NCBI GenBank assembly: GCA_948437815.1
Contig: CAOJKG010000001.1
Coordinates: 1 to 36,970, forward strand
Reading direction: 5' to 3'
Source: an uncultured Mycoplasmatota bacterium
GTDB lineage: Bacteria; Bacillota_I; Bacilli_A; RF39; UBA660
DNA: 36,970 nucleotides
The position numbers were made by a program, and so were the translations under genes. The notes under the pieces are model-generated. The model did not search any database and was not told the DNA's origin. It worked only from the letters and a program-made list of their open reading frames with translations. Position 1 is the stretch's first letter; every line of letters begins with the position of its first letter. Positions 3,010 to 33,449 of this stretch are shown here, in pieces.

Positions 3010-4434
3010 ATGAAAAAAGAAGAAAAAAAATATGGTTTACTTAAAGTGATTTTATTATTTGTTTTAGTAGCAATTTTCTTGACTTGGTTACTTCCTTATG
3101 GTCAATTTAATGGCTCGGATTATGTAGACGGAGGAGTTTTAGCAAGAATAGGAATGAGTAGTTTATCTGAGCTTGTTTATTATGCTTTTCAATTTGCTTT
3201 AGATAAGATAGTTATTTTACTCTTCATTGCAGGTTTCTATGGAGTTTTATGTAAAACTAAAGCATACGATGATATTACTTCAAGTATTGCAAAAAAGTTA
3301 AAAAATAAAAAAATTGCTGTTGTAGTATTTTCTATTATTTTAGCAGTTTTAGCAAGTGTGTTAACGCAGACTTTTGTTATTCTTATTTTTGTTCCATTTA
3401 TCGTATCTATTATGAATAAAATGAAACTTGATAAGATAACTATTATTGCTACTACATTTGGTTCAATGTTAGTTGGTGTACTTGGAGCTACTTATGGTAC
3501 TGAAGGATTAATGCTAATAGCAAAAGATAACTTTTTTACAGCAGAAGGGTTTGATCCTAATAAAACTGTTTTAATTAGAGCAGGTATACTTCTTATAAGT
3601 TTAGTTTTATTTAATTTCTTTATAATTTCTCATATGAGTAAAAAAGATAAAGAAAATGAAAATGCTGAAATGTTTCAAATTACAGAAGTAGATGAGAAGA
3701 AAAAAAGTTATGTTCCAATAATTGTTATCGGAATTTTACTAATAATTCTAGTTGTTTTAGGATTTGTTAATTGGAATAAACTAAATATTACTGTTTTTGA
3801 TAGTTTCCATAAGTTAATAACTGAAGATATTAAAATAGGTGAAGATTTTTATATTTTCAAAAGTATTTTAGGATCTAGTCTTAAAGCCTTTGGAAATTGG
3901 GATGTATTTACTATATCTTCAATATTATTTATTTTTACAATAATCATAGGTTTATGTTATCGTTTTAAATTTAATGATTTTGTTGTAGGATTTGCTGAAG
4001 GATGTAAAAAAGTTATTAAGCCATGTATAGTTTTGATGGGAGCTTATTTGGTGATGGGAGTAATTTATATGTCACCGTATTTACCATATATACTTAATAA
4101 AGTATTAAGCTTAACTGAGGGATTTAATGTAGCTACTTCAAGTTTAACTATGCTAATTAGTACTATATTCTGTCCTAATCTTGACTTTATAGGTTATTTA
4201 GGAATACTTAGTCATATGGCAGCAGAATATCCAAATTATATGAATGCTTTATATGTGATAATTTCATCAATTACAGGTTTAACAGCTATTTTTGCACCTA
4301 CAAGTTTAGTGCTAGTAGTAGGCTTAACTTCTCTTGATGTTAATTATAAAGATTGGTTAAAATTTATTTGGAAATTCTTAATTGGAATAGTTATTTGTTT
4401 ACTTGTAATTTTTATACTAATGACTATGATTTAA
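3010..4434 (+). CDS. Polytopic membrane transporter, YfcC/DcuC-like family
   Basis: ORF 2977..4434 trimmed to ATG 3010 after the SD AGGAGGAG. About 12 hydrophobic segments are visible. The N-terminus (LLKVILLFVLVAIFLTWLLPYGQF) resembles the characteristic YfcC-family start as I remember it. Confidence 0.5.
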   Translation: MKKEEKKYGLLKVILLFVLVAIFLTWLLPYGQFNGSDYVDGGVLARIGMSSLSELVYYAFQFALDKIVILLFIAGFYGVLCKTKAYDDITSSIAKKLKNKKIAVVVFSIILAVLASVLTQTFVILIFVPFIVSIMNKMKLDKITIIATTFGSMLVGVLGATYGTEGLMLIAKDNFFTAEGFDPNKTVLIRAGILLISLVLFNFFIISHMSKKDKENENAEMFQITEVDEKKKSYVPIIVIGILLIILVVLGFVNWNKLNITVFDSFHKLITEDIKIGEDFYIFKSILGSSLKAFGNWDVFTISSILFIFTIIIGLCYRFKFNDFVVGFAEGCKKVIKPCIVLMGAYLVMGVIYMSPYLPYILNKVLSLTEGFNVATSSLTMLISTIFCPNLDFIGYLGILSHMAAEYPNYMNALYVIISSITGLTAIFAPTSLVLVVGLTSLDVNYKDWLKFIWKFLIGIVICLLVIFILMTMI

Positions 4435-4458
4435 AGAGGCTATTAAAGCTTCTTTTTT
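4435..4458 (+). terminator. Rho-independent terminator after the permease gene
   Basis: AGAGGCT (4435-4441) pairs with AGCTTCT (4447-4453), including one G-U pair, across loop ATTAA. A T6 run follows. Confidence 0.55.
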
Positions 4459-4472
4459 GACGTTAAAAGACC

Positions 4473-4501
4473 TTGAAAAAGGCTAGTATCTATGCTATAA
4501 T
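4473..4501 (+). promoter_or_regulatory. Strong sigma-A type promoter of the Tad-like operon
   Basis: TTGAAA (4473-4478), a 17-nt spacer, then TATAAT (4496-4501) preceded by an extended -10 TG (4493-4494). It sits directly after a terminator and 25 nt upstream of ATG 4526. Confidence 0.7.
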
Positions 4502-4525
4502 TCTTGTTAGAGGTTGGTGTATACT

Positions 4526-5281
4526 ATGAAAAAATTTAAGTTGGTTGTAGTAACATTTATCGCAGGGCTGTTAGGGATGCCACTTGCATATGCTGAATGT
4601 GATGCAACAGAAACCAATAAGCTTAGCAGTTTAGCTAATAATGTTAAGGTTAGCCAAGAAATAATTCAAAAGGAGTTTGAACTTGGTGTTGGCGATAATC
4701 CTCCTGATGGATTAACAGAAGAGGAAATTAAAGATTATAAAATGAAAGTTGATTACTTTAAAATTTATATTAGTAATATAACAGAAGAAATATATGTAGT
4801 TGTTACTAATAATAATACAAAACAAACTAAAACTTTTAATTATAAAGATACTCAAAATGGTACTGCTTTTTTTGAAGAAGAGGTAGGTTCAGAAATAGTT
4901 AATTATACAATAGAGGTTCATGCTTCAGGTAAAACAAATTGTAATAGTAAAAAACTGAGAACTTTTTATTTAACTACACCAATGTATAATATCTTTAGTG
5001 AATCATCTTTATGCGAAGGCATAAAAGAATTCTATTTATGTCATGAATATTTATCAGTTAAAACAACATTTGATAAATTTGAAGAGTTGACTAATCAGTA
5101 TAGAGATGGAAAACTAAAAGCAGATGGCTCAATTAAAGATGATGATAAAAAAGATAATGGAATTATAGGGTTTATAAAAGAACATAAAGGAACTGTAATT
5201 GTTGCAACTTTAGTTATAATTACAATTGGGGGATTAGTAACAGTGATAATAGTAAAAAAGCAAAGGAGTAGAATAGTATGA
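4526..5281 (+). CDS. Exported type-I membrane-anchored protein, no recognised family (first gene of the Tad-like operon)
   Basis: ORF 4514..5281 trimmed to ATG 4526. The signal peptide is MKKFKLVVVTFIAGLLGMPLAYA, followed by ECD. The C-terminal TM segment is TVIVATLVIITIGGLVTVIIV, followed by the basic stop-transfer KKQRSR. The mature part has 4 Cys. Its stop codon overlaps the next start (ATGA at 5278-5281). Confidence 0.6.
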   Translation: MKKFKLVVVTFIAGLLGMPLAYAECDATETNKLSSLANNVKVSQEIIQKEFELGVGDNPPDGLTEEEIKDYKMKVDYFKIYISNITEEIYVVVTNNNTKQTKTFNYKDTQNGTAFFEEEVGSEIVNYTIEVHASGKTNCNSKKLRTFYLTTPMYNIFSESSLCEGIKEFYLCHEYLSVKTTFDKFEELTNQYRDGKLKADGSIKDDDKKDNGIIGFIKEHKGTVIVATLVIITIGGLVTVIIVKKQRSRIV

Positions 5282-8200
5282 AAAATGTTTTAAGAAATGC
5301 TAGTTTATTTATTATCGCAATTGCATTTACTTTTACTTTTACTTTAGATGTAAAAGCTGATGCTTGTGGAGATTTAGATAATAATCGTTGTAGAATAGGA
5401 ACTCGTGGAGCAATAAAAGTTGCAGGGAATGGTTTTAAATATCAACAACTTTCATCAGCTACATCGAATAATAGAGAATATGTTGGTAGAACATATTATA
5501 ATACGATAAATGTATCAGTAAATTTTAATAATAATCCAGGTAATTATTATTTTTCGCATTATAAAGATTCATATTCTTCATTGTTTTGCTTAGATGCTCA
5601 ATATGAGGGTGGCTCATCAGTTAATGCTGAAAGATTTTTATTAGATACAAGTGAAAGTAAAAAGGTTCAAGTATTCGATGCTGCAGTGATGAGTATATTG
5701 ACAGACGGTGGAGTGCATACTGGTGGTGCTGGAGATGCAACTTATTGGGCTAAATTAATGGCAATACGTGCTATGACTTATACATTTGGTTTTTATAATA
5801 CTGCTAATAAAGATTATCTTTCTGCATTTTATGCTGGTTTAACAGTAGCTCATAATTGGAATGAATTTTATGCTTCTGATGTAGCTGCAGTAAATGCTGA
5901 ACTTGCTAAAATTGGTGCAGGATCTATCGGAAGTGTTCCACTATATAGATCTTATAATTATACAGGTGATCCTGTTAATAGTGGTGCAGGTTATTACGTT
6001 AGAGGACTTGCAGCAGCAGCAGAATATGCAAGAAAATTGGCTTCTCAACCTAAAGTTGAAGTAAGTAATCCTCAAGCTGGAGAAGTAGAAACTTCAGGAG
6101 AAGAGGGAGACGTTTTTGTAAAAAAAGATGTAGTACATACTCTTAAATTAAGTGGTTTTACAGAACAAAATAAATTTATTATAAATTCAAATGATAATTA
6201 TGGAATTAAGTTTGCTGAAGGAACTCAATATGATGGACTAACAGCTTATATTTCTCAAATTGAAATTTCAGGAGGGCCAGTATTATCTAAGGATCAAATA
6301 CCTTATGGTCAGGACTTTGTTGAACTTGGTTATATTAAAGAAAATCAAGATGTTGAAATCAAAATTACTGTTCATTTTGAAGGTTGGAAGTCTTCAACTA
6401 ATTCAAATATAGTAACTTTGAAATGCGGACAAACTCCAATTAAGTATTCTATTGATGGATCTTATGGTACTGGGATGGATGAACAATTTGGTGAGTACAT
6501 CGGAACAGTTTGGTATGCTGGTAAAAAAGAAAAACAAAGATACGTTGGTGTAGAAAGAGTTAGCGAAAGAAGAGAAGATGATGCTGGTACACCATGGGAA
6601 AGTCCTTATGAAACAAACTTAATTGACGCTTGTAGTTGTGATGATTTGGAAGAAGCATGTAAAGCTACTCATAATCCCAATAGTGATGAATGTATTGAAT
6701 TAAAAGAATCTAACTGTGGTATGTGTTCATGGTATGATGTTTTATGTGAATTTGGAGATGAAGAATCTTGTGAAAATTATACTACGCAATGTGATCTAAA
6801 GTGTGATACGTATTTTAAAACTTTTGAATGCTGTGATGAACGTGGGGAATTGATTGTTTCAACCTTAGATGATCATGAAGTTAGTATTTTGGGTCCAGGC
6901 GAAGATAATCCTGATGCTCCAAGTGTAAAAGCTTGTTTTGTTACTGCTGTTGATAATATGGCAAGGGTTTCAGAAGATAGTGATGAGAAAAATAACGCTG
7001 GAGTTGAAGGGGTAAAAGATCAAAAAGATAATACTTATACTTTAGCTGATATGAAATCAAATAGTTATTGTACAGTTTCATGTAAAGAAGATTATATTAT
7101 GACAATGCCTACAGCAAAATTAGTAAATGCTGGTAGATACTTTACATTTAAAGCAAAAGTAGAGGGTACTAAGGCTTGTTATACTAATACGATAGATAGA
7201 GAAAAATATAATAAGGATATTGTTGAAAAACAAAAAGCAATATATGAAGCCTACAATGGTTGGATAAGATATCAGACAGCTTTAGAATCAAATCCTCATA
7301 ATTTGCCTACTGTTACAGAATGTGGTAGTTGTCATGCGTGGTGTCATGGTTCAAGTTGTGATAGTCAAATAACTTATATACCAGGAGCTACAACAGATCA
7401 GTTTTCTTATACAGCTTATTACCCTGAATTTAGCGAGGGAAGGAATGGGTCAGGCCAAACTTTAAGATTAAATCCAACTACAGAATATGGCCCAGAAAGT
7501 GATACTACACAAACACATACAGAAAGCGATGTAGCTAATTGTACTAAAACTTGTTCTAATGGCAATGGAGGTACAACAACATGTCCGTGTGAGCATTCGT
7601 GTAGTTATACTGTTGTTGATGAGGAACGAGATGTTGGCTATTTAATAAAAAGGTTGACAGATCTTAGAGATGGTTACAAGAATGCTCTAGATGCTGCTAT
7701 TGAAGATTATAATCAGACTATAAAGGAATTTAATCAATGTTCAAAATGGGATTCAGAAATTAATTATGATCCTGAAGTTTATTATGATTATTCAGAAACT
7801 GATTATATGAATATGTTAAATAATCATATTGGTGAAATGGAAAAAGATGTACAGACATCTTCAACAAATGATTGGTATTGTAATGGAACTACTACATTAA
7901 ATAATTTTAAATTTGGTCAATTATCAGATCAAAATTATGAACAATGTAATAATTCAAATACTTCTTATGTAGAACCAAAAATGCAATATGTTATGTGTTC
8001 TAGCAGTAAACGCGAATGCTATTTTGATCCTAACTCTTATGTTTCAGAAGCGTCATATAAAAAGGTTACTTCTAAAGTAGTAGCTAATTATAGACCAGCA
8101 ACATTATTCTATAATGCTTATCCGACTGGTGAAATAACTACTAGTAAGGCTGATGACAATGTAGCTTTAGAAAATAAATTACCTGTTGCATTAAATAGAG

Positions 8201-8961
8201 AACGTGGAATTTATAAATATCAAGTTAAAATGGAGAAATTAGGAGAATTTTATGATCAAGCTCCTAGTGACAATTTGGGGCGTTATGTAGGTTCTAGTAC
8301 AGCAGTTGTTGATCCAACAGTTCTGGATTATAATTGTTCTTATTTAGTTAATATAACTAAAACAACTGGTTGGGTATGTGATTTCGATGATGATTGTGAT
8401 GATGACTGTATTGCTAATTGCATAGGACCTAATTGTGATGATTACTGTGATGGTAATGATTGTGTAGCAGATTGTATTGGACTAGGATGTATATATGATT
8501 CAGGTGCTGGAACATCATTATTAGAAAAAGTAGTTTCGTTAAATAGTTTATTTCCAAATGGAACTGATTCTTATAACTGGGATGAAAGAAGAAATGATAA
8601 AGCACGTTTAACTGTATCTGAAATTGAAGGAAAAGGAAATTCTGTATATGATGAAGAACCTATATTAAGTATAACGCTTACTCCTTCAAGTGCTAGAGAA
8701 ATAAAGAAATATAATAATAGTGTTATCAATGATGGTGGATATTCAAATAAAACTGTTTCTTGTGAAAATCGTGATGGATTTGAGCAAATAGTTTGTTATA
8801 GTTCATTTATTGATGATTTACTCGCTGGTGAATTTGGTGATGTAGTTAATGATAACAGCTTAATTGCTGAAGAAAGTTATCGTCATGGATCTTCTGGATA
8901 CTTTGAACTATGGGGTAATGCAGTATCTGAAGATAACATGATTGGTCCAGCTTGGAAGTAG
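5278..8961 (+). CDS. Giant (1227 aa) secreted cysteine-rich protein, no recognised family
   Basis: A long uninterrupted ORF with a signal peptide (MKNVLRNASLFIIAIAFTFTFTLDVKA). I hand-count about 46 Cys, clustered at nt 6631-6834, 7321-7359, 7540-7602 and 8377-8490. There is no LPXTG motif and no C-terminal TM segment. Confidence 0.75.
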   Translation: MKNVLRNASLFIIAIAFTFTFTLDVKADACGDLDNNRCRIGTRGAIKVAGNGFKYQQLSSATSNNREYVGRTYYNTINVSVNFNNNPGNYYFSHYKDSYSSLFCLDAQYEGGSSVNAERFLLDTSESKKVQVFDAAVMSILTDGGVHTGGAGDATYWAKLMAIRAMTYTFGFYNTANKDYLSAFYAGLTVAHNWNEFYASDVAAVNAELAKIGAGSIGSVPLYRSYNYTGDPVNSGAGYYVRGLAAAAEYARKLASQPKVEVSNPQAGEVETSGEEGDVFVKKDVVHTLKLSGFTEQNKFIINSNDNYGIKFAEGTQYDGLTAYISQIEISGGPVLSKDQIPYGQDFVELGYIKENQDVEIKITVHFEGWKSSTNSNIVTLKCGQTPIKYSIDGSYGTGMDEQFGEYIGTVWYAGKKEKQRYVGVERVSERREDDAGTPWESPYETNLIDACSCDDLEEACKATHNPNSDECIELKESNCGMCSWYDVLCEFGDEESCENYTTQCDLKCDTYFKTFECCDERGELIVSTLDDHEVSILGPGEDNPDAPSVKACFVTAVDNMARVSEDSDEKNNAGVEGVKDQKDNTYTLADMKSNSYCTVSCKEDYIMTMPTAKLVNAGRYFTFKAKVEGTKACYTNTIDREKYNKDIVEKQKAIYEAYNGWIRYQTALESNPHNLPTVTECGSCHAWCHGSSCDSQITYIPGATTDQFSYTAYYPEFSEGRNGSGQTLRLNPTTEYGPESDTTQTHTESDVANCTKTCSNGNGGTTTCPCEHSCSYTVVDEERDVGYLIKRLTDLRDGYKNALDAAIEDYNQTIKEFNQCSKWDSEINYDPEVYYDYSETDYMNMLNNHIGEMEKDVQTSSTNDWYCNGTTTLNNFKFGQLSDQNYEQCNNSNTSYVEPKMQYVMCSSSKRECYFDPNSYVSEASYKKVTSKVVANYRPATLFYNAYPTGEITTSKADDNVALENKLPVALNRERGIYKYQVKMEKLGEFYDQAPSDNLGRYVGSSTAVVDPTVLDYNCSYLVNITKTTGWVCDFDDDCDDDCIANCIGPNCDDYCDGNDCVADCIGLGCIYDSGAGTSLLEKVVSLNSLFPNGTDSYNWDERRNDKARLTVSEIEGKGNSVYDEEPILSITLTPSSAREIKKYNNSVINDGGYSNKTVSCENRDGFEQIVCYSSFIDDLLAGEFGDVVNDNSLIAEESYRHGSSGYFELWGNAVSEDNMIGPAWK

Positions 8962-8979
8962 TTAGAGGAGGATAGAGAA

Positions 8980-9393
8980 ATGCAAAGTTCATATTGGGGT
9001 TATTGGTTAGTTTTAATGGGTGTTGCAATAGTAGGGCTTATGGTTTCTGTTAATGGTCTTACTACCACCTCTACTCAAGATCATTATGCAGTAAAAGAAA
9101 TAGTTGAAGCTTCAATGTTGGAGTCTGTTGATTATGGTTATTATAGAGATTACAATGAAGTTAAAATGAATAAAGAGAAATTTATGGAAGTATTTACAAG
9201 AATGTTAGCAGAAAATATGAGTTCAACAGATACTTATGAAATAAATTTTTATGAAATGTATGAAGCTCCACCTAAAGTTAGTGTAGAAGTAAAGAGTCAT
9301 AGTGGAACTAATTTTATTTCTACTTCTGACTATGATGTTACTACTAGAGTAGATGCAATAATTCAAATTCATGCTGAAGAAATTGGCAGATAA
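8980..9393 (+). CDS. Small N-terminally anchored protein (pseudopilin-sized, 137 aa), no recognised family
   Basis: SD GAGGAGGA lies 8 nt upstream. The N-terminus MQSSYWGYWLVLMGVAIVGLMVSV forms a single hydrophobic helix. The rest is hydrophilic with mixed secondary-structure character. There is no G/xxxxE prepilin motif. Confidence 0.6.
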   Translation: MQSSYWGYWLVLMGVAIVGLMVSVNGLTTTSTQDHYAVKEIVEASMLESVDYGYYRDYNEVKMNKEKFMEVFTRMLAENMSSTDTYEINFYEMYEAPPKVSVEVKSHSGTNFISTSDYDVTTRVDAIIQIHAEEIGR

Positions 9394-9404
9394 AGGAGGA
9401 TAAA

Positions 9405-10232
9405 ATGGGAAATATTGTAACAACATTTAAAAGATTCTTTTCGAATAAAAATACTGTTACTATACTTGGTGTGTTACTTGGTTTAATTGTACTTTATGTG
9501 GGGTACAATTATCGTGTTAAGACTGCAGTTAGTACAATAAATGTTCCTGTAGCTAAAAAGACAATATATGGTAGAACAGTTATTACTAGTGATTTAATCA
9601 CACAAACTGAAGTTTTATCTAGTATGGTTACTGGTAAAAATAATACGATTATTAGAAGTAACTCTAATTTAATTAGTGCTAATGATCCTTTTTGCGTAGC
9701 AGTTAATACTAGTATACCTGCAGGAGGATTCTTTCATACAGAACAAGTTGTAAAATGTGGTACTGTAAATGGAAATTATTTAAAAAACATGCCTGACGGA
9801 TATAGTCCTGTAAGTATTCCTGTAGATATTCATAAAACTTATGGTAATTCAATGTTACCAGGAGATTATATAGATTTATATGCGAGAATGACTAGTAGTG
9901 ATGGAAAGTTAATATTTGCTAAATTGGTTAGTAAGTTACCAATTATGGCAGTTGTAGATGGTAAAGGGCAAAGTGTTTTTGGAGGAGTTACTGTAGGTAC
10001 TCCTGCTGAATTACAGTTTGCTTGTCCTAATGTTCAAGATGGCATTAATTTGTTTATGCTTTTGACTAAAGCAATTTTATTAGGAGAGTCTAAAGTTGAA
10101 TTAATACCTATGCCTGGTAATGCAACTTATACATCTACTCCAGGTGAAACTAAGGTAGATAGTAATTATATGATGAATTTAATACTTTCATATACTCAAG
10201 ATGTTCCTGATGAATCTGTACCACAACAATAA
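9405..10232 (+). CDS. CpaB/RcpC-like Flp-pilus assembly protein (SAF domain plus RcpC-like domain)
   Basis: SD AAGGAGGA precedes the start. There is an N-terminal TM segment (VTILGVLLGLIVLYVGY). A SAF-like segment follows (INVPVAKKTIYGRTVITSDLITQTEV). A CpaB-like core is present (SPVSIPVDIHKTYGNSMLPGDYIDLYA). The gene sits immediately upstream of the secretion ATPase, as in Tad loci. Confidence 0.6.
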   Translation: MGNIVTTFKRFFSNKNTVTILGVLLGLIVLYVGYNYRVKTAVSTINVPVAKKTIYGRTVITSDLITQTEVLSSMVTGKNNTIIRSNSNLISANDPFCVAVNTSIPAGGFFHTEQVVKCGTVNGNYLKNMPDGYSPVSIPVDIHKTYGNSMLPGDYIDLYARMTSSDGKLIFAKLVSKLPIMAVVDGKGQSVFGGVTVGTPAELQFACPNVQDGINLFMLLTKAILLGESKVELIPMPGNATYTSTPGETKVDSNYMMNLILSYTQDVPDESVPQQ

Positions 10233-10272
10233 AAAAGAATAATAAAGAATAAAATAAAGGAGGTGACATATT

Positions 10273-11361
10273 TTGAATGATGCAATATTTTCTCAAATTG
10301 ATTTTGGGCCTATAAAAGAGTTTTTAGACATCGATGATATAACCGATATTTCCTATACTAATGGAGGACAGTTGTGGTTAAAATCTTTATCTAAAGGTGT
10401 TTATAGGGTGGAAAGACCAGACATTAATAATGCCTTAATTGAAAAATTGGCATTTCAATGTTCAAATGTTATGGGAAAAACATTCAATATGGCACATCCT
10501 TTTTTAGATGCTGAAAGTACTGAATTACGTCTTAACTTTGTTCATGATTCAATTGCAACTAATGGAGTTGCCTTAGTTATACGTAAAACTCCTGCAAAAA
10601 TTCGTTTGAATAGAGAAAAATTGTTGAATGAAGAATATGTAAGCGCTGATTTACTTGATTTCTTACTTAATTGTGTTCAAGGACATGCTAATATTATAGT
10701 TAGTGGGGAAACTGGTTCAGGAAAAACTGAGTTAGTTAAATATCTTGCTAGTACAACTAAAGAAAATGAGAAAATTATTACAATAGAAGATACTTTAGAG
10801 TTGCACTTAGATAGAATATTTCCGCATCGTGATATAGTAGCAATGAAAACCAATAACATAGCTTCTTATTCAGAAGTGTTAGTTACTTGTATGAGACAGA
10901 ATCCAATATGGATATTATTATCTGAGGTTCGTAGTGCAGAAGCTGTTATGGCTGTTCGTAACTCTATATCTTCTGGTCACCATATAATCTCAACTATTCA
11001 CTCTGATAAAGCAGCTTTGATTCCAATGCGTATGTATAGTTTGATTGAGTCTAATATTGATGTAGAACAATTTGTAACGACAATTCATAGATATGTTCAA
11101 ATAGGTATATATGTAAAGGGATATATGAGTGAGAAACTAGGAAGATTCCAACGTGAGATTATGGAAATTTGTGAGTTTTATGTTGATGAAAATAATAAGC
11201 CACAAGTTAATACTATTTTTCAGAAGACTTTAGATGGTAGATTTACTCTTAATAATCCTACGAAATATTTAAGAAATTATTTGGCAGTTCAAGGGGTTAA
11301 GTTAGAAGAAGATTTATTTCATTTAGGAAATAAAGAACAAGAATTAATTGAAACATTGTAA
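10273..11361 (+). CDS. Secretion ATPase of the TadA/CpaF/VirB11 branch (T2SSE superfamily)
   Basis: TTG start at 10273, about 9 nt after the SD AAGGAGGTGA. Motifs: Walker A GETGSGKT (nt 10705-10728), Asp box ITIEDTLEL, Walker B WILLSEVR, His box GHHIISTIHS. There is no tetracysteine Zn motif, so it is not GspE/PilB-like. Confidence 0.8.
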   Translation: MNDAIFSQIDFGPIKEFLDIDDITDISYTNGGQLWLKSLSKGVYRVERPDINNALIEKLAFQCSNVMGKTFNMAHPFLDAESTELRLNFVHDSIATNGVALVIRKTPAKIRLNREKLLNEEYVSADLLDFLLNCVQGHANIIVSGETGSGKTELVKYLASTTKENEKIITIEDTLELHLDRIFPHRDIVAMKTNNIASYSEVLVTCMRQNPIWILLSEVRSAEAVMAVRNSISSGHHIISTIHSDKAALIPMRMYSLIESNIDVEQFVTTIHRYVQIGIYVKGYMSEKLGRFQREIMEICEFYVDENNKPQVNTIFQKTLDGRFTLNNPTKYLRNYLAVQGVKLEEDLFHLGNKEQELIETL

Positions 11362-11375
11362 AAGGAGGAAGTGAA

Positions 11376-12272
11376 ATGGAGTTAGTTATTTGGTTCGTAA
11401 TAGCTTTATTTGTAATCATTTATCGAAAAAATGATGGCACTGAAACTTTTTATAATTTTTTTAAATCACAATTTGGTAAAATTTATGCTAAATATGCACC
11501 TTATAGTTTCCAAACTATAAGTGCTAAAATGAAAGATCTAAAACAAAATTATACTATGAAAGATTATGTGGTTCAAATAGTAATATTAGGTGGATTTGCT
11601 GGAGGAGTGGCATTTTTATACTTTTATAATTTTATTATGGTAGCGATTTATGGAGGACTTGCTATTGCATTTGTTCCTTATCTAGCATGGCTTAGAAGTA
11701 AAAGAATATATAGTGAATATATATTTGAGCAAATTCAAGTTTATACTACTAACGTAATTATGGAGTTTAATACGACACAGAGTTTTGTTAAATCTTTAGA
11801 AGGTGTTAGAGATTCAGGAATACTCGAAGATCCTGTTTTGGAAGATTTGAAAGTTATGATTAATATGTCTTATCAAAATGGTACAATTGACGAATCAATT
11901 GAATATTTTAATGAAAAATATCCTTATTATATGGTAAAGAATATGCATCAATTATTCTTACAAATTACTAAGGAAGGTGCTAAAGATTCAGGAGAAGCTT
12001 TAGAAAATATGAGTATGGATATAGATGCTTTAGTTGAAGGTGTTTATCGTGATCAAATGGATCGTAAGCAATTTCATACTAAATTTATTACTTTTGCATG
12101 TGTATTATTTTTACTCGTTATGGTAATGCAGGTTTTACTTGGTAGAAAGAATTATATGTTACTTTTAGATTTATGGTATGCTCATATAGTATTACATGCC
12201 ATAATAATTATTAATAGTTATTTCTTACTCACAGGAGAAAAATATTATAATGATGATGTGGGGGTAGAGTAA
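11376..12272 (+). CDS. TadB-like inner-membrane platform protein (T2SSF-like topology)
   Basis: SD AAGGAGGAAG precedes the start. The topology is an N-terminal TM segment, a TM pair (IVILGGFAGGVAFLYFYNFIMVAIYGGLAIAFVPYLAW), a helical cytoplasmic domain of ~130 aa, and C-terminal TM segments. The gene directly follows the ATPase. The assignment rests on topology and position more than on recognisable motifs. Confidence 0.5.
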   Translation: MELVIWFVIALFVIIYRKNDGTETFYNFFKSQFGKIYAKYAPYSFQTISAKMKDLKQNYTMKDYVVQIVILGGFAGGVAFLYFYNFIMVAIYGGLAIAFVPYLAWLRSKRIYSEYIFEQIQVYTTNVIMEFNTTQSFVKSLEGVRDSGILEDPVLEDLKVMINMSYQNGTIDESIEYFNEKYPYYMVKNMHQLFLQITKEGAKDSGEALENMSMDIDALVEGVYRDQMDRKQFHTKFITFACVLFLLVMVMQVLLGRKNYMLLLDLWYAHIVLHAIIIINSYFLLTGEKYYNDDVGVE

Positions 12273-13066
12273 TGCAAATAGAGTTAGCGATAGTAGCAAT
12301 TATTGTTTTTTATATTTTATCTAAAAGTGGCAGAATAAGCATAAGCAAGTTAATTGCCGATAATGAAATGTATTTTAGAAGATTAAAAGAAAGTGATTAT
12401 GAATTTTATGTAAAAGCTAAGTATGGAGATTCAGTAAATGCAGATATATTATTCAATAAAAGGTTACAAAATTCTTTGATTGTAATGCTGGTAGTCTTTT
12501 GTTTACTTCTAAAAAATATGTCTTATTTGTACTTTATTGTTGTTTTGATCGTAGGTTTTGCCTTCTTTAAATTAGATTATATGAATTTGAAAGGGTATTA
12601 TAAAAAACATTTACATGAGATAGATACAATGCTTCCTTATTACTTAAAGGGACTAGAAATATTAATTCAACACTATACAGTTCCAGTAGCAATAGGAAAA
12701 TCACTTGATGATGCACCAGATATATTTAAAGATGGTCTAAAAGAATTAATAAATAAAATAAATGCTGGAGATGACACGATTGAACCTTATATGGATTTTG
12801 CAAGACAGTATCCTGTTAGAGATTCCATGCGTATGATGCGTTTACTTTATCGTCTTAGTTTGGGTAGACAAGAGCGTAAACAAGAGCAATTAATAGCGTT
12901 TTCTAAAACTATTTCAAATCTACAACAAAAAGCAAGAGAAACTAAATATAAAAATCGTTTGGATAAAATGGAGTCTAAAACTATGAGTATGCTTATTGCA
13001 ACAGGTGTAGGTGTAATGGTATTACTTATTATATCAGTATTAATATTAATGAATGCGAGTGGTTAA
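12272..13066 (+). CDS. TadC-like inner-membrane platform protein (T2SSF domain)
   Basis: The start overlaps the previous stop (TAATG at 12270-12274). The cytoplasmic segment LPYYLKGLEILIQHYTVPVAIGKSLDDAPDIFKDGLKELINKINAGDD...FARQYP has the GspF/TadC-like pattern. TM segments flank it (LIVMLVVFCLLL..., MSMLIATGVGVMVLLIISVLILM). Confidence 0.55.
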   Translation: MQIELAIVAIIVFYILSKSGRISISKLIADNEMYFRRLKESDYEFYVKAKYGDSVNADILFNKRLQNSLIVMLVVFCLLLKNMSYLYFIVVLIVGFAFFKLDYMNLKGYYKKHLHEIDTMLPYYLKGLEILIQHYTVPVAIGKSLDDAPDIFKDGLKELINKINAGDDTIEPYMDFARQYPVRDSMRMMRLLYRLSLGRQERKQEQLIAFSKTISNLQQKARETKYKNRLDKMESKTMSMLIATGVGVMVLLIISVLILMNASG

Positions 13067-13095
13067 CAATTTTTTACATAATTTAGGTTAATAAC

Positions 13096-13124
13096 TTGAC
13101 ATTTAACGTAGATTTAGATAAAAT
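13096..13124 (+). promoter_or_regulatory. Internal sigma-A type promoter dedicated to the last gene of the Tad-like cluster
   Basis: TTGACA (13096-13101), a 17-nt spacer, then TAAAAT (13119-13124). It lies in the only sizeable intergenic gap of the cluster (13067-13148). Confidence 0.6.
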
Positions 13125-13154
13125 TAATATAGATAAGAAAGCGAGGAAATGTGT

Positions 13155-13571
13155 ATGTTAACAATGGCACCATCAGTTTGTTCTGATTTATGGGGAGTAT
13201 GGCAAATCTTAGGTTGGGTTTTAATGGTATTTAAAATAGTTATTCCAATTTTAATAATTTTATTTGGTATGATAGATTTAGGAAAAGCTGTAGTAGCAAG
13301 TAAAGATGATGAAATTAAGAAAGCTATTAAATCTCTTGCTATGAGAGCTGTAGCAGGTATTGTTATATTCTTTATTCCAACTTTAGTTGCAACTATCTTC
13401 AAGTTAGTAGATGGCTTCCAAGAAGTTAAAGGCGAGTATGATGTATGTGCTACATGTATTAGTAGTCCTGGTAAGTGTCAAACTACTGCTGAATCTCATT
13501 GTACTAGTCATAGTGGCACTTGGAACAAAGATACTGGTTGTAGTGGCTTCCAAGCAACAAAAACTGAATAA
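13155..13571 (+). CDS. Small two-TM hairpin membrane protein with a Cys-rich C-terminal tail (VirB2/TrbC-like topology; candidate unconventional filament subunit)
   Basis: ORF 13149..13571 has ATG codons at 13149 and 13155, and I prefer 13155 because it is 7 nt after GAGGA. TM1 is WQILGWVLMVFKIVIPILIILFGMI. The charged loop is DLGKAVVASKDDEIKKAIKSLAMR. TM2 is AVAGIVIFFIPTLVATIFKLV. The 48-aa tail contains 5 Cys (VCATCISSPGKCQTTAESHCTSHSGTWNKDTGC). Confidence 0.6.
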   Translation: MLTMAPSVCSDLWGVWQILGWVLMVFKIVIPILIILFGMIDLGKAVVASKDDEIKKAIKSLAMRAVAGIVIFFIPTLVATIFKLVDGFQEVKGEYDVCATCISSPGKCQTTAESHCTSHSGTWNKDTGCSGFQATKTE

Positions 13572-13574
13572 TAA

Positions 13575-13601
13575 GAATTCCGATTTTGGAATTTTTTTTT
13601 G
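13575..13601 (+). terminator. Rho-independent terminator ending the Tad-like cluster
   Basis: GAATTCC (13575-13581) pairs with GGAATTT (13588-13594) across loop GATTTT, followed by a run of nine or more T. Confidence 0.7.
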
Positions 13602-13831
13602 AATTTGATGTATGTTATATTATGAATATAACTTGGCCTTTAAGTTATAGGGGTTAATTGTTTTTAGGTGGTGTGAGCAATAAGTGTTCCTAATAAAAGA
13701 TAAGATATTAATTGAATTGATTTTTTTGATAAAATAAAGGAAATTATATTAAAATAATTGAAAGAGGAGGTTTAAAAATTAATAATTTGAGCGTTTTTTG
13801 TGATTTTTGATTATTTTTAGTTATAAAATTA

Positions 13832-13860
13832 TTGACTTTTGGCATAATATTTTATATACT
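13832..13860 (+). promoter_or_regulatory. Sigma-A type promoter of tRNA-Asn
   Basis: TTGACT (13832-13837), a 17-nt spacer, then TATACT (13855-13860). The mature tRNA 5' end is 12 nt downstream. Confidence 0.65.
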
Positions 13861-13871
13861 TTAGTAGTACT

Positions 13872-13947
13872 GCTCGTTTAGCTCAGTCGGTAGAGCGCAC
13901 GGCTGTTAACCGTTAGGTCGTAGGTTCGAGTCCTACAACGAGCGCCA
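13872..13947 (+). tRNA. tRNA-Asn (anticodon GTT), CCA encoded
   Basis: I folded a 76-nt cloverleaf by hand. The acceptor stem is GCTCGTT/AACGAGC (7 Watson-Crick pairs). The D arm is GCTC-AGTCGGTA-GAGC. The anticodon loop is CTGTTAA with GTT at 13905-13907, and there is one C-T mismatch at position 27:43. The T arm is GTAGG-TTCGAGT-CCTAC. The discriminator is G, followed by CCA. Confidence 0.92.
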
Positions 13948-13958
13948 TTTGAATTATT

Positions 13959-13982
13959 AAGTCTAGTTTCTAGACTTTTTTC
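13959..13982 (+). terminator. Rho-independent terminator after tRNA-Asn
   Basis: AAGTCTAG (13959-13966) pairs with CTAGACTT (13970-13977), followed by a T-run. Confidence 0.7.
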
Positions 13983-14048
13983 TTTTTCTTAAAAAAGCTA
14001 TTAATATAGATAAAATATATGTTAAAATAGTAGAAGAAGGAATTTATT

Positions 14049-16391: not shown

Positions 16392-19300
16392 TAAAGAAGG
16401 AACAAATATTATAGTTTCAGCAGGGGCTGGTTCAGGTAAAACAGCGGTACTTTCAGAAAGAGTTCTTCGTAAGCTTAAAAGTGGTGTTGATATAAGAAAT
16501 ATTTTAATTCTAACTTTTACTAATGAAGCGGCTGGAGAAATGAAAAATAGAATAAGAAAGAAAATTAAAAAAGCTAATTTAACAGAGCAATTAGAATATA
16601 TTGATGTGGCTAATATTACAACTTTTGATGCTTATGCCCTAGGAATAGTAAAAAAATATCATTATCTTCTAGGAATAGGTAAGAATATTTCAATTATTGA
16701 TTCTTCTATATTAGATTTAGAAAAGTTAAGAATATTAGATGAAATAATGAGTGAATATTATGCTAAAAAAGATGCTAGATTCTTGAAATTAGTCGGAGAT
16801 TTTACAGTTCGCGATGATGAACAGATTAAAGATGTTATTTTAAATATAAATAAAGCATTAGATTTAAAATATGATAAAAATGATTTCTTAAATTCTTACA
16901 TAGAAGGTTTTTATAATGAAAGTAATATAGATAAATTATTTAAAGAATATTTTTTATATTTAAAAAATCTATGTGAAGAATTAGAAAATAATATTTATGA
17001 AATAGGAGAGTATTTAGAAGAAAAATTATATGTTAAAGTAAGTGATGCTTATTCTATATTCTTTAAACCAAATAATTATAATGATTTATATAAAATAAAA
17101 GATTTACCAAGAGTACAGTTTAGAGGTATTCCGAGTGATGCTTTAGAATTAAAAGAAAATATCAAAACTTTAGTTACAAATATTCAAAATCTTACTATAG
17201 ATAGTGAAGAAGAATTAAAAAATCAAATTATATTAACTAAAGATTATGTTAGTATAATTATTGAAATTATTTTGGAACTTGATAAGAGATTAAATAATTT
17301 TAAAAATGAAAAAGAAGCTTTTGAATTTAGCGATATAGCTAAAATGGCTATAAAAATAGTTAGTGATAATGAAATTATTAGAGAAGAAATAAAACATACC
17401 TATAATGAAATAATGATTGATGAGTATCAAGATACTAATGATTTACAAGAAGCTTTTATTTCAAAAATAGAAAATAATAATGTTTATATGGTGGGAGATA
17501 TTAAACAATCTATTTATAGATTTAGAAATGCTAATCCTAATATTTTTAAAAATAAATATGATAATTATGCTAAACATATAAATGGGGAAAAAATAGATTT
17601 ACTTAAAAACTTTAGATCAAGAAGTGAAGTTCTTAGTAATATTAACGAAATATTTAGTTTAATTATGACAGAAAAATATGGTGGGGTAGATTATAAAAAT
17701 AATCATGAGATGGTTTATGGTAATCTAGCTTATATTAATGAAGGTAAAACTAATTATTCTAATGATTTGGAAATACTTAAATATGATAATAAAGATTCTG
17801 ATTTTAATAATGTAGAGGTTGAAGCTTTTACAATAGTTAAAGATATCAAAAATAAAATTCAAAATAAATATCAAGTTTATGATTTTGAAATAGGCAAAAA
17901 AAGAGATATTTTGTTTAGTGATTTTTGCATTATTTTAGATAGAGGCACGGATATGCCAACTTATAAAAAGATATTTGAATATTTTGGTATTCCGATGGAT
18001 GTTTATAAAGACAGTAATTTAGTAAATGAAAATGATATTTTAGTTATTAAAAATATTGTTAGTTTGATATTAGCAATAAAAAATAAAGAGTTTGATACAA
18101 AAATGCGTTACTATTTTACTAGTATAGCCAGAAGTTTTATTGGGGATTTATCTGATGCAGAAATATTAAATTATATAGATAAAAATACTTTTTATGAGTC
18201 AATCATTTATAAAAAATGTGATAAAATAGCTAGAGATTTAGATAATAAAACAGCAGGATTATTATTAGAAGAAATAATCGAAAGTTTTAAATTTTATGAA
18301 TGTTTAATTAAAGGTGGAAATATTTCAAATAGTATTAAACGTCTTCATTATTTAATTGATTTAGCTAATATGGCTGAAGTTTTAGGATTTTCCATAATAG
18401 ATTTTAAAGAATATTTGGAAAAAATGGTAGATAATAGAAAAGAAATAAGACAGAAACAAGATAAGAATAGTAGTAATTCAGTAAAAATAATGAATATTCA
18501 TAAATCTAAAGGGTTAGAATTTCCTATTTGTTATTTTGCAGGATTTAAAAAGAATTTTAATTTAGGAGAAATAAAAGAAAAATTTTTGTATGATAATAAA
18601 TATGGAATTTTAACACCTTATTTTAAAGATGGTATTGGTACTACTTTTATCAAAACTTTAATAAAGAATAATTATGAGACAGAAGAAATATCAGAGAAAA
18701 TAAGACTTTTTTATGTAGCTTTAACAAGAGCTAAAGAAAAAATGATAATGGTAATACCAGAATTTAAAAAGCCGTTAAAACAAAGTATAGTTGTAAATGA
18801 TATAGTGGCTAGTAAATATCGTTCTTTTTATGATTTTATTTCTTCTATTGCAATTAATCTAAATAAATATATTAAACCTATTTCTTTGGATACTTTAGAT
18901 TTAACTAAAGATTATGAATTTAGTAATAATCAAGTTATCTTTAATGAAGAAAAAGAAGAAAAAAAGAAAATAGAATTTAAGCCAATAAATATTGAAGTAG
19001 AATTAGAAGATAAGAAACACGCTTCTAAAAAGATATTAGAAGTTTTAAATAAAAGTGATGCTAAAACTTTAGAATATGGTACGAAAATTCATGAAGAGTT
19101 AGAATTAATTAATTTTAAAGATAATAATGATAATAAATATATTAATGCTTTAAAAGCTAAATTTGATTTTAATAAGGCAATTATTTATCAAGAATTAGAG
19201 TTTTATTTTACTAAAGAGACAGTTGAATATCATGGAATAATTGATTTAATGCTCGAGTATGAAAATGAAATAATTATTATTGATTATAAACTTAAAAATA

Positions 19301-19440
19301 TAGAAGAGGATGCTTATATTAAACAATTAAAAGTTTATTATGATTATGTAAGTAGTATTAGTAATAAAGAGATTAAATTATATCTATACTCTATATTAGA
19401 TGAAAAATTAAAAGAGATAGATATAAGTTTTGTAAAATAA
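16357..19440 (+). CDS. addA: ATP-dependent helicase/nuclease subunit A (AddA/RexA, UvrD-like)
   Basis: Motifs: Walker A AGAGSGKT, DExQ box MIDEYQDTN, later helicase motifs (VGDIKQSIYRFRNA, LKNFRSR, VKIMNIHKSKGLEFP, LFYVALTRAKEKM), and a C-terminal nuclease (GIIDLMLEYENEIIIIDYK). The start is ambiguous: GTG 16348 and ATG 16351, 16354 and 16357 are all in frame. I chose 16357 because it is 8 nt after GGAGG. Confidence 0.88.
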   Translation: MNFTTEQTEAINKEGTNIIVSAGAGSGKTAVLSERVLRKLKSGVDIRNILILTFTNEAAGEMKNRIRKKIKKANLTEQLEYIDVANITTFDAYALGIVKKYHYLLGIGKNISIIDSSILDLEKLRILDEIMSEYYAKKDARFLKLVGDFTVRDDEQIKDVILNINKALDLKYDKNDFLNSYIEGFYNESNIDKLFKEYFLYLKNLCEELENNIYEIGEYLEEKLYVKVSDAYSIFFKPNNYNDLYKIKDLPRVQFRGIPSDALELKENIKTLVTNIQNLTIDSEEELKNQIILTKDYVSIIIEIILELDKRLNNFKNEKEAFEFSDIAKMAIKIVSDNEIIREEIKHTYNEIMIDEYQDTNDLQEAFISKIENNNVYMVGDIKQSIYRFRNANPNIFKNKYDNYAKHINGEKIDLLKNFRSRSEVLSNINEIFSLIMTEKYGGVDYKNNHEMVYGNLAYINEGKTNYSNDLEILKYDNKDSDFNNVEVEAFTIVKDIKNKIQNKYQVYDFEIGKKRDILFSDFCIILDRGTDMPTYKKIFEYFGIPMDVYKDSNLVNENDILVIKNIVSLILAIKNKEFDTKMRYYFTSIARSFIGDLSDAEILNYIDKNTFYESIIYKKCDKIARDLDNKTAGLLLEEIIESFKFYECLIKGGNISNSIKRLHYLIDLANMAEVLGFSIIDFKEYLEKMVDNRKEIRQKQDKNSSNSVKIMNIHKSKGLEFPICYFAGFKKNFNLGEIKEKFLYDNKYGILTPYFKDGIGTTFIKTLIKNNYETEEISEKIRLFYVALTRAKEKMIMVIPEFKKPLKQSIVVNDIVASKYRSFYDFISSIAINLNKYIKPISLDTLDLTKDYEFSNNQVIFNEEKEEKKKIEFKPINIEVELEDKKHASKKILEVLNKSDAKTLEYGTKIHEELELINFKDNNDNKYINALKAKFDFNKAIIYQELEFYFTKETVEYHGIIDLMLEYENEIIIIDYKLKNIEEDAYIKQLKVYYDYVSSISNKEIKLYLYSILDEKLKEIDISFVK

Positions 19441-19512
19441 AGTAAATATTATACTAAATACTAGTTTAGATGCATATTTTATGATAGAATAATTTTAAGA
19501 GGAGGGATATAT

Positions 19513-20067
19513 ATGCCAGTATGGTTAATAGTTATTTTAGTAATAGTTGTTATATTAGTTTTATGGGTTATAGCAACTTATAATTCACTAGTGTCTTTTA
19601 GAAATAGAGTAAAAGATGCTTGGAGTCAAATTGATGTACAATTAAAAAGAAGATTTGATTTAATTCCTAATTTAGTAGAAACTGTTAAAGGATATACTAA
19701 ACATGAATCTGAAACTTTAGAAAATGTTATAAAGGCACGTAATACTTATATGTCTGCAACACTTCCAGAAGATCAAATGAAAGCTGATGGAGAGTTAACT
19801 AAAGCAGTTAGTAAATTATTTGCTTTATCAGAAAGTTATCCTGATTTAAAAGCTAATACTAATTTTAATGATTTACAAAATCAACTTAAAGAAACTGAAA
19901 ATAAAATTGCAATGTCTAGACAATTTTATAATGATATTGTAATGCAATATAATAATAAAGTTGAGATGGTTCCATCAAATATTATTGCAAATATGTTTCA
20001 TTTTAAAAAAGAAACTTTCTTTGAAGCTCAAGAAACTGAAAGAGAAAATGTTCAAGTTAAATTTTAA
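19513..20067 (+). CDS. lemA: LemA family membrane protein
   Basis: There is an N-terminal TM segment, then [39 protein letters not shown], which is typical LemA sequence. SD AGGAGGG precedes the start. Confidence 0.85.
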
Positions 20068-23034: not shown

Positions 23035-23060
23035 AGTATACACCTCTAGTAAAGTATATC

Positions 23061-26507: not shown

Positions 26508-26556
26508 ATTGACAAATTTTTTATTTTTTATTTTGTATAATTATATTGGTGATAAT

Positions 26557-32150: not shown

Positions 32151-32163
32151 TGTTCTTCTTTTT
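32131..32163. terminator. Bidirectional hairpin between convergent queH and the GspE-like gene
   Basis: AAGAAGAAACA (32131-32141) pairs with TGTTCTTCTT (32151-32160), with one bulged A, across loop ATTAATTAA. T-runs lie on both sides. Confidence 0.5.
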
Positions 32164-33367: not shown

Positions 33368-33449
33368 ATTAAGTATCACCTATTCTAATATAGATTATAC
33401 TATATTTTTAATATTTTCTCAATTTATATTTCCTAAATTTATGTAAAGA

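Follow-up and report, generated by a model that had tools for sequence, protein, structure and literature searches.

A DUF5411-marked gene cluster with a putative Tad-like motor and a giant cysteine-rich exoprotein in uncultured RF39-type gut Bacilli

Introduction

On the Gram-positive plasmid pLS20, gene 37 is listed as a putative VirB11 and genes 36 and 38-41 are listed as 'Unknown' (PMC8557374). For Roseburia, Ruminococcus and Eubacterium, a language-model study (Miller et al. 2022, PMC9523054) has predicted a 'secretion-related' operon of 8-9 genes, and a divergent Tad-like pilus locus has been reported from TANB77, an uncultured order of gut Firmicutes with reduced genomes (PMC11680825). 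Here we analyze a cluster of eight genes, g1 to g8, in a 36,970-nucleotide stretch of DNA (the window) from contig CAOJKG010000001.1 of assembly GCA_948437815.1, an uncultured Mycoplasmatota bacterium of the RF39 lineage. RF39 bacteria reportedly occur widely in the guts of humans and animals and have small genomes and many auxotrophies (PMC12306168). Our literature search found no paper on this system in RF39-type Bacilli and no experimental work on any of its members. A first-pass annotation, made from the sequence letters, had taken the cluster for a repurposed Tad-derived apparatus. The system is neither unique nor unseen: related operons with DUF5411, CpaF and GspF genes have been predicted in gut Clostridia (PMC9523054), and the same module is present in pLS20-family conjugation operons (PMC8557374).

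We propose, with moderate confidence, that the cluster is a Firmicute-specific relative of the Tad (type IVc) systems, marked by the domain DUF5411, which may build a Tad-like surface fibre or act as a display machine. It is not a canonical Tad locus, as the Flp, TadV and TadZ components of such loci were not found in it, and it lacks the components for DNA transfer that define a conjugative type IV secretion system (T4SS).

Results

A type IV filament-like motor

The ATPase of the cluster is encoded by g5 (10273-11361, + strand), which starts with TTG and specifies a 362-amino-acid (aa) protein of the T2SSE superfamily, in the CpaF/VirB11/FlaI group. Superfamily membership is clear, with 93.8 bits against the Pfam model PF00437 (cut-off 24.9). 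The subfamily models score below their cut-offs, at 111 bits for the NCBIfam VirB11 model (cut-off 250) and 97 bits for TadA-conjugal (cut-off 373). Compared with solved structures in the PDB, g5 matches CpaF best (62 bits), followed by FlaI and VirB11 (55 bits), with PilB, PilT, GspE and DotB all below 39 bits.

The next two genes, g6 (11376-12272, +) and g7 (12272-13066, +), encode polytopic proteins of 298 and 264 aa, which we take as the first and second platform proteins. Neither has a direct Pfam hit, and neither matches PDB sequences even when searched as a profile. The g7 product appears to be TadB/TadC-like: its profile aligned by hhalign with six canonical TadB/TadC proteins, drawn from three proteobacterial plasmid tad loci, at a probability of 89% (E 2e-6, 171 columns), and with pLS20 p39 and its pZB18 equivalent at 80%. 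An exhaustive phmmer search returned 512 relatives of g7, and the Pfam T2SSF domain was recognized in 4 of 57 distant full-length ones. We also searched hidden Markov models (HMMs) of the gut-Bacilli families against a 50-protein database. The g7 model reached the F2 protein of a Priestia plasmid (E 7e-17) and those of pXO2, pLS20 and pZB18 (E 4e-6 to 9e-5). The model of g6, a protein with four transmembrane (TM)-like segments by hydropathy, reached Priestia F1 (E 1.3e-14) and the F1 proteins of Listeria, pXO2 and pLS20 (p38; E 5e-5 to 2e-4). Priestia F1 in turn matches T2SSF at E 3.4e-5, one bit below the cut-off, and through this transitive link only, g6 appears to be T2SSF-like. The first-pass annotation had described g6 and g7 as paralogues, a description we abandoned because the two profiles fail to align with each other in hhalign.

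Two N-anchored proteins are encoded before the ATPase. The 137-aa product of g3 (8980-9393, +) carries DUF5411 (PF17424, E 3.9e-50). Its syntenic homologues lie directly 5' of the ATPase gene in pLS20, pXO2, pZB18 and Listeria pLIS14, and two genes 5' of it on the Priestia plasmid. At one locus (L004, 13675-15138), DUF5411 is fused to Peptidase_M15, a VanY-type cell-wall peptidase domain. Long DUF5411 open reading frames (ORFs) of up to 561 aa occur at further loci such as L017-L019 and L025, the Peptidase_M15 call applying to L004 only. The AlphaFold2 (AF2) model of g3 is poor, with a predicted local distance difference test (pLDDT) score of 55, and has no fold match. A long N-terminal helix followed by strands was suggestive of a pilin; given this score and the missing fold hit, we make no such claim for DUF5411.

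The 275-aa product of g4 (9405-10232, +) is weakly CpaB/RcpC-like (SAF), with hits to TIGR03177 (E 3.7e-6, 26 bits) and PF16976 (E 6e-4, 20 bits) that lie below the curated cut-offs of 71 and 28.8 bits. At E 1.5e-35, its family HMM recognizes a SAF-domain protein of Priestia that itself scores above the Pfam SAF threshold. The description of the core as Tad-type stands in part. A type IV filament-type core is supported by PF00437 and by the g7 alignment, but the CpaB models and the ATPase subfamily models remain below cut-off.

A colinear module on Gram-positive plasmids

Searched against PLSDB, g5 matched best to genes of Gram-positive plasmids annotated 'CpaF/VirB11 family' (E 1e-24 to 1e-49); canonical CpaF proteins gave E 1e-12 to 1e-16, and most canonical VirB11 proteins gave 1e-8 to 1e-13. 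These plasmid genes came from Priestia koreensis, pLS20, enterococcal pZB18, Lactococcus, Listeria pLIS14 and pXO2. The modules around them are colinear with the cluster in the window. They begin with a large surface protein, which is a Tie thioester adhesin in pLS20 and Listeria, SpaA-like in pZB18 and Ig-like in Priestia. A 120-150-aa N-anchored protein follows that hits DUF5411 (31.3 bits, above cut-off, in Priestia; E 1.4e-5 for pLS20 p36), to which Priestia alone adds genes for a SAF/CpaB and a ParA-like protein. The ATPase, two polytopic proteins, a 120-135-aa N-anchored protein, a hydrophobic peptide of about 48 aa and a TrbC/VirB2 family protein complete the module. The g3 family HMM found the plasmid DUF5411-like proteins at E 6e-8 (Priestia) to 5e-3.

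A surface protein, DUF5411, a CpaF/VirB11 ATPase and two polytopic proteins are all encoded in the window cluster, which shows syntenic homology to five plasmid loci. We assign it to an informal family of DUF5411-associated ATPase/platform modules of Firmicutes. The window represents a widespread chromosomal branch of this family, characterized by a Cys-rich giant protein, a VirB2-like protein and the apparent secondary loss of linked pilin-like genes. The cluster also has the VirB11-like ATPase and VirB2/TrbC-like hairpin that mark a pLS20-type T4SS. No VirB4, VirD4, VirB6-like protein or relaxase was found among window ORFs of at least 100 aa or in the conserved part of 84 related loci.

The plasmid loci also encode hydrophobic peptides of 47-50 aa (MLDQN.DR..W.IGAV...), at L085 12134-12277 (pLS20) and L086 8020-8172 (pZB18), with peptides of the same type in pXO2 (L093 6107-6256 and 10083-10229). 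These Flp-sized peptides may be unrecognized pilins of Gram-positive conjugation operons.

Conservation and loss of linked pilin-like genes

Matches to g5 were found in at least 532 species-representative genomes, and the best 80 of these show 76-99% identity. The labels of these 80 genomes read uncultured Bacilli, Tenericutes, Mycoplasma sp. CAG:776, Clostridium sp. CAG:609, Candidatus Ventrenecus or Candidatus Onthocola, and we take them to be reduced-genome gut Bacilli of the RF39 type. Using family HMMs, we mapped 84 related loci, of which 80 come from different species genomes of uncultured low-GC gut Bacilli. The order g1-giant-DUF5411-CpaB-ATPase-g6-g7 is kept in all 84, as far as each contig extends. 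Across the mapped loci, the giant protein is therefore tightly linked to the genes for the ATPase and the platform; a lack of such linkage would, by the first-pass annotation's own test, have refuted its interpretation.

Three groups of loci can be distinguished, namely clade A, made up of the window plus L001-L026 (ATPase identity of 92% or more), clade B (76-86%) and eight loci with the core alone. With the window as reference, identities across the 26 other clade A loci are 92-99% for the ATPase g5, 79-100% for g6 and g7, 63-100% for g3, 62-100% for g8, 51-99% for g4, 31-96% for g1 and 31-82% for the giant protein g2. The neighbouring transporter, where present, is 46-95% identical. This gradient indicates that the motor is under unusually strong constraint and that the exported proteins evolve fast.

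The clades differ in what lies between g7 and g8. Clade B loci mostly carry five extra genes there, followed by one to five mapped g8-type ORFs. Two of the five encode pilin-like proteins of 75-100 aa that start with MKEATGELN(M/I)TV, continue with about 22 hydrophobic residues and end in a Cys-rich tail. Two more (x3 and x4) encode minor-pilin-like proteins of 150-170 aa, in which M(R/K)EAIGG precedes a hydrophobic helix; they are homologous to the 120-135-aa N-anchored, DUF4320-like proteins of the plasmid modules. A short leader ending in Gly before a hydrophobic helix looks like a class III (prepilin) signal, although the leader of these proteins (MKEATG/ELN) differs from the Flp motif of Tad. 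The fifth gene, x5, encodes a soluble protein of about 330 aa from a family of more than 6500 clusters at 90% identity. Its profile has no match among PDB sequences, and a large profile search of proteins returned close relatives only, with no annotation. The eight core-only loci, and two others in which the five-gene module lies about 3-4 kb away, show that the module can move or be lost.

In all 26 other clade A species, g8 lies immediately 3' of g7 with nothing further, exactly the adjacency that a clean five-gene deletion would produce. Judging from this gene order, the missing linked pilin genes are a derived state of one subclade. In the window, tblastn found no homologue of the five clade B genes (E>0.4), and the sister-clade pilin leader has no DNA-level match in all 36970 bases. 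Neither the cluster nor the region 13572-14048 encodes a Flp-type prepilin (G/XXXXE[YF]) on either strand. No A24 prepilin peptidase (TadV/CpaA) occurs among the scanned window ORFs, and a jackhmmer search of the 84 loci with a rhizobial A24 peptidase, an approach of low sensitivity, gave no match. A ParA-like TadZ/CpaE gene was not found in the window.

These ORF, profile and motif scans of the window bear out the earlier statement that canonical Flp pilin, prepilin peptidase and TadZ are lacking at the locus. They agree, too, that no Flp-sized gene lies 3' of the cluster, as 13572-14048 holds no ORF of note on either strand. The absence of pilins cannot, in contrast, be taken as a feature of the system, because most sister-clade loci carry pilin-like genes and the 330-aa gene between g7 and g8.

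An exported pair with a giant cysteine-rich protein

The first two genes encode the exported part of the cluster. The g1 product (4526-5281, +) is a type I membrane protein of 251 aa that has a signal peptide, an ectodomain with four Cys, a C-terminal TM segment and a basic tail. The mechanical ORF begins at TTG 4514, but translation probably starts at ATG 4526. g1 has no match in Pfam or NCBIfam. It is present in the 77 of the 84 loci that reach its position and always lies immediately 5' of g2; the exceptions are L065 and L084, for which we mapped no g2 homologue. Its identity between species is 26-96%, and its stop codon overlaps the start of g2 (ATGA).

The giant protein g2 (5278-8961, +) has 1227 aa, a Sec signal peptide and 46 Cys, many of them invariant, and matches nothing in Pfam or NCBIfam. 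Its C-terminus (window 8359-8958) consists of a CxxxC-rich block and a terminal GP[SA]WK-COOH that is invariant in all gut-Bacilli giants. A C-terminal segment of about 75 aa (...LFPNG..YNW...S.TLTP...IR.YN) matches the C-terminus of the Priestia plasmid Ig-like protein (L090 4140-4365; E 3.6e-7 in the 50-protein database, 20.5 bits). These two elements could serve in docking or sorting. An AF2 model of mature g2, built with 39 sequences, has a mean pLDDT of 66.5, most of its first ~400 residues score above 80, and Foldseek found no match for it in PDB or BFVD at E<=1e-3. A thioester (TIE) adhesin had been suspected from an FCLD motif and by analogy with pLS20; neither a Pfam hit nor a fold match supported it, and we rejected this assignment.

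At three loci (L023 80-8700, L053 20-8700 and L071 378-9200), the g1-giant(-DUF5411) cassette is tandemly duplicated 5' of a single motor. This arrangement suggests that the cassettes may be exchangeable surface modules.

A VirB2/TrbC-like hairpin protein

The last gene, g8 (13149-13571, +), encodes a two-TM hairpin protein of 138-140 aa with a Cys-rich extracellular tail. From the spacing of the Shine-Dalgarno (SD) site and from orthologues, ATG 13155 (138 aa) is the more probable start. The window copy alone matches the T4SS_pilin model PF18895 weakly (E 0.0019). Across the family, 39 of 45 members match T4SS_pilin (best E 9e-7) and 5 match T4SS_CagC, the family of the Helicobacter VirB2 homologue. 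By these profile matches, g8 is VirB2/TrbC-like at the family level. Together with DUF5411 in g3, this removes two of the four proteins that had been considered unassignable, while g1 and g2 remain without a Pfam or NCBIfam family.

Sister clades have one to five mapped g8-type copies, some fused to secreted domains. In the clade B locus L029, two secreted Cys-rich proteins of 371 and 363 aa (17300-18415 and 18519-19610) end in a g8-type hairpin of about 90 residues and resemble adhesin domains joined to a pilin module.

Boundaries and regulatory signals

As first annotated, the cluster comprises eight + strand ORFs (4526-13571) between two hairpin terminators with U-runs, and each gene is preceded by a GGAGG-type SD site. 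The gaps from g1 to g8 are -4, 18, 11, 40, 14, -1 and 82 nucleotides; the earlier limit of 40 holds for six of them, including the two overlaps, but not for the 82-nucleotide g7-g8 gap, which contains a promoter. On the 5' side, a hairpin at 4433-4455 and its U-run (4433-4461, +; RNA fold -9.3 kcal/mol) end the upstream gene for a YfcC/DcuC-like transporter and mark the cluster edge, and a counterpart is found in orthologous loci. The 3' terminator (13573-13605, +) has its hairpin at 13573-13596 (-7.7 kcal/mol).

Promoter P1 (4473-4501, +), TTGAAA-17-TATAAT with a TG extension, lies 5' of g1, and P2 (13096-13124, +), TTGACA-17-TAAAAT, serves g8; both match the consensus at 11 of 12 positions. 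A generic promoter scan of the region as a whole gave 59 sites against 59.0 expected from shuffles, and thus no excess, and its top two sites (11/12) fall exactly 5' of g1 and g8. We extracted both intergenic regions from the 26 orthologous loci of other species. Clade A species share the P1 hexamers as well as the leader GAGGTTGGTGTATACTATG that follows them, and P2 is conserved by a strict pattern in 21 of the 26 loci and recognizable in the others. Because they are kept in most orthologous loci, P1 and P2 are not chance occurrences, and the extended promoter 5' of the cluster and the separate promoter of the hairpin gene can both be retained from the first reading. The leader (window 4502-4528) is near-invariant in species whose g1 proteins are just 31-50% identical. 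This conservation exceeds what the SD site alone would require, so the leader may be a regulatory element.

A tRNA-Asn (GTT) gene (13872-13947) lies directly 3' of the cluster, with its own hairpin terminator (13959-13977) and promoter-like sites upstream. The GC content is 0.30-0.33 in the cluster and 0.16-0.25 in the downstream flank. This contrast and the adjoining tRNA gene suggested a horizontally acquired island. We rejected this idea because gene order is kept in the best 80 of the at least 532 species genomes, with changing flanks, and because the cluster was not found among the viral contigs of IMG/VR.

Other genes in the window

A canonical PilB/GspE/ComGA-type ATPase gene (32162-33379; 475 bits with a GspE model, 273 bits with a ComGA model) is isolated on the minus strand and has neither a PilC nor a pilin gene as its neighbour. 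This separate ATPase indicates that the genome holds a second type IV filament system, which probably brings a prepilin peptidase with it. The window also contains murG and murB, from which we conclude that the organism makes peptidoglycan; the Gram-positive envelope assumed in the first-pass annotation agrees with this cell wall. Genes for a GPR germination endopeptidase (23535-24263; 153 bits, above cut-off) and a SpoIIP-like protein (26509-27462; 96 bits) are sporulation genes in an apparently reduced-genome, very low-GC gut lineage. The ORF at 22063-23043 (-) matches the Mycoplasma 'MAG6410 family transglutaminase-related lipoprotein' model at E 2e-16, far below the cut-off. addB and addA were identified by context.

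Discussion

If the cluster is a Tad relative, a mechanism can be outlined. The hexameric g5 ATPase would turn or push the g6/g7 platform and thereby lift small hydrophobic subunits out of the membrane, which would stack to give a fibre or stub that crosses the wall. The extracytoplasmic scaffold would consist of g4 and g3, and the fusion of DUF5411 to Peptidase_M15 in L004 fits the need to open or cross the wall. The Sec-exported g1/giant pair would be the exposed, probably adhesive part, carried or positioned by the machine. This role is suggested by the stop-start overlap of the two genes, their strict linkage to the motor, their fast divergence and the adhesins at the same position on plasmids. 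The MKEATG-leader proteins encoded right after g7 most likely provide the subunits in clade B. In the window's clade, where these genes have left the locus and the motor is constrained even more strongly, subunits may be supplied from elsewhere in the genome, or g8 may serve as the subunit. g8 is a candidate because it is the only pilin-like gene left, is directly attached, has its own strong conserved promoter and, in clade B, occurs in tandem copies and in fusions to secreted domains.

Several observations weigh against this proposal. Neither the window nor the 10-kb surroundings of the locus in 26 sister species yielded a filament subunit with a class III signal, a prepilin peptidase or TadZ, and no link of x5 to TadZ or ParA was found. 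The sister-clade pilins are recognized by sequence features, with weak archaeal Pilin_N hits in 5 of 94 proteins. g6 gives no direct T2SSF signal, and the CpaB and ATPase subfamily-specific models score below their curated cut-offs. Neither the giant protein nor DUF5411 has a fold match, so the adhesin role is a presumption.

The VirB2-like g8 figures in two other explanations. In one, a CpaF-like ATPase and a TadB/C-like platform would act on a VirB2/TrbC-type two-helix pilin, namely g8, instead of on pilins with class III signals. We consider such a hybrid unlikely. If true, it would join the mechanism of type IV pili to that of type IV secretion pili, with g8 as the sole subunit in the window's clade; it would also explain the gene 36-45 block of pLS20 and pXO2 type and imply an unseen conjugative fibre in Gram-positives. 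In the other, the cluster would be a domesticated piece of a Gram-positive conjugation system, descended from the block, running from the adhesin to the VirB2-like protein, with which pLS20-, pXO2- and pZB18-type conjugation operons begin, and now used for cell-cell contact or for intercellular DNA or protein transfer and not as a pilus in the Tad sense. The plasmid ATPases that g5 matches best (pLS20, pXO2, pZB18 and Priestia types, E 1e-24 to 1e-49), the colinear gene order, the syntenic HMM hits for g3, g6, g7 and x3/x4, and g8 itself all point that way. Nonetheless, VirB4, VirD4, VirB6 and relaxase genes were found neither in the 37-kb window nor in the conserved part of the 84 loci, and the cluster lies on the chromosome, shows vertical conservation within an order-level group and does not occur in viral contigs. 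Moreover, the Priestia plasmid module, with its CpaB and ParA-like genes, sits outside any conjugation operon, which argues that the module is not intrinsically conjugative. Domestication therefore seems improbable to us.

The export of the giant protein could itself be the purpose of the machine, with a short pseudopilus-type piston, as in type II secretion, moving the g1-held giant through or onto the wall and no long fibre being formed. Such a role would account for the linkage of g1 and the giant to the motor in every locus, the translational coupling of g1 and g2, and the three loci with duplicated g1-giant(-g3) cassettes (L023, L053 and L071). The machine could recognize the giant by its invariant GP[SA]WK and by the conserved C-terminal segment that Priestia also has, and clade A has no linked major pilin gene. 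We nevertheless find a dedicated exporter unlikely, as it has no known precedent in monoderm bacteria, the sister clades encode apparent major and minor pilins, and the giant, with its ordinary Sec signal peptide, may not need the motor. A DNA-uptake (competence) pilus of a nucleotide-auxotrophic, reduced-genome organism is the least probable of these explanations, and we regard it as very unlikely. The motor is extremely conserved in a reduced-genome lineage, and DNA uptake by Tad pili is reported for some reduced-genome bacteria (PMC8513845). The separate PilB/GspE/ComGA-type ATPase at 32162-33379 would, however, be the more usual competence motor, ComEA, ComEC and DprA are not linked to the cluster, and a giant fast-evolving exoprotein is atypical of competence pili. 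SpoIIIA-like, ComG-like and archaeal Ced-like readings were set aside because the gene content of the cluster does not suit them.

The cluster indicates that the type IV filament superfamily in Firmicutes holds a large unclassified branch marked by DUF5411; the size of the x5 family is one example. The combination of a constant motor (92-99% identity) and a diverged giant protein (31-82%) makes the machine a prime candidate for the interface at which these bacteria attach to partners or the host, or feed on them, and for strain-level specificity. To our knowledge, no pilus-like structure is known in Gram-positive conjugation. Because of the link to the 'VirB11-like' block of pLS20, pXO2 and enterococcal plasmids, insight into either system would shed light on how Gram-positives conjugate.

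Comparison with known systems

With Tad/Flp (type IVc) systems, the cluster shares a bifunctional-type T2SSE ATPase whose best solved relative is CpaF, a weakly CpaB/SAF-like protein encoded before the ATPase and two putative single-domain platform proteins of about 260-300 aa encoded after it; its sister clades share small pilin-like genes with short leaders. In contrast to Tad, the window cluster has no G/XXXXEY Flp pilin, A24 peptidase, recognizable TadZ or secretin, the last of which is expected to be absent in a monoderm. Its additional obligatory parts are DUF5411, the g1 anchor, the 1200-aa Cys-rich exoprotein and the VirB2-like hairpin protein. The TANB77 locus likewise belongs to a reduced-genome gut Firmicute, and its CpaB, TadA and TadB/C are recognizable mostly by structure; its pilin-like genes, unrecognizable by sequence, have their own promoters (PMC11680825). 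It differs by its TadZ/CpaE-like genes and fused TadBC, and no DUF5411, Cys-rich giant or VirB2-like gene is reported for it (PMC11680825).

Compared by description only, the operon predicted by Miller et al. shares CpaF, a PilC/GspF-like protein, DUF5411 and a large surface ('cell invasion domain') protein with the window cluster, and it too is an uncharacterized operon of gut Firmicutes (PMC9523054). It belongs to Clostridia, and neither a VirB2-like protein nor a Cys-rich giant is mentioned.

The modules of pLS20, pXO2, pAW63 and pZB18 (genes 34-45 in pLS20) have the same order, from the surface adhesin through to the TrbC/VirB2-like protein, with an ATPase just 32-34% identical to that of the window. 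They are without CpaB and lie beside VirD4, VirB4 and VirB6, whereas the window cluster is chromosomal, includes CpaB and has no DNA-transfer genes. Their thioester or SpaA-type adhesins are unrelated to the Cys-rich giant. The best single match for nearly all core genes is the locus at 160.6-169.5 kb of Priestia koreensis NZ_CP061869.1 (g5 E 3e-60, g3 E 6e-8), which reads Ig-like-DUF5411-SAF-ParA-like-CpaF/VirB11-T2SSF-279 aa-DUF4320-like. In the stretch read, no g1 and no VirB2-like gene were seen, and the large protein, with SLH/Ig-like neighbours, is not Cys-rich. The Priestia locus differs further in that it has both a ParA-like gene and a DUF4320-like, minor-pilin-like gene.

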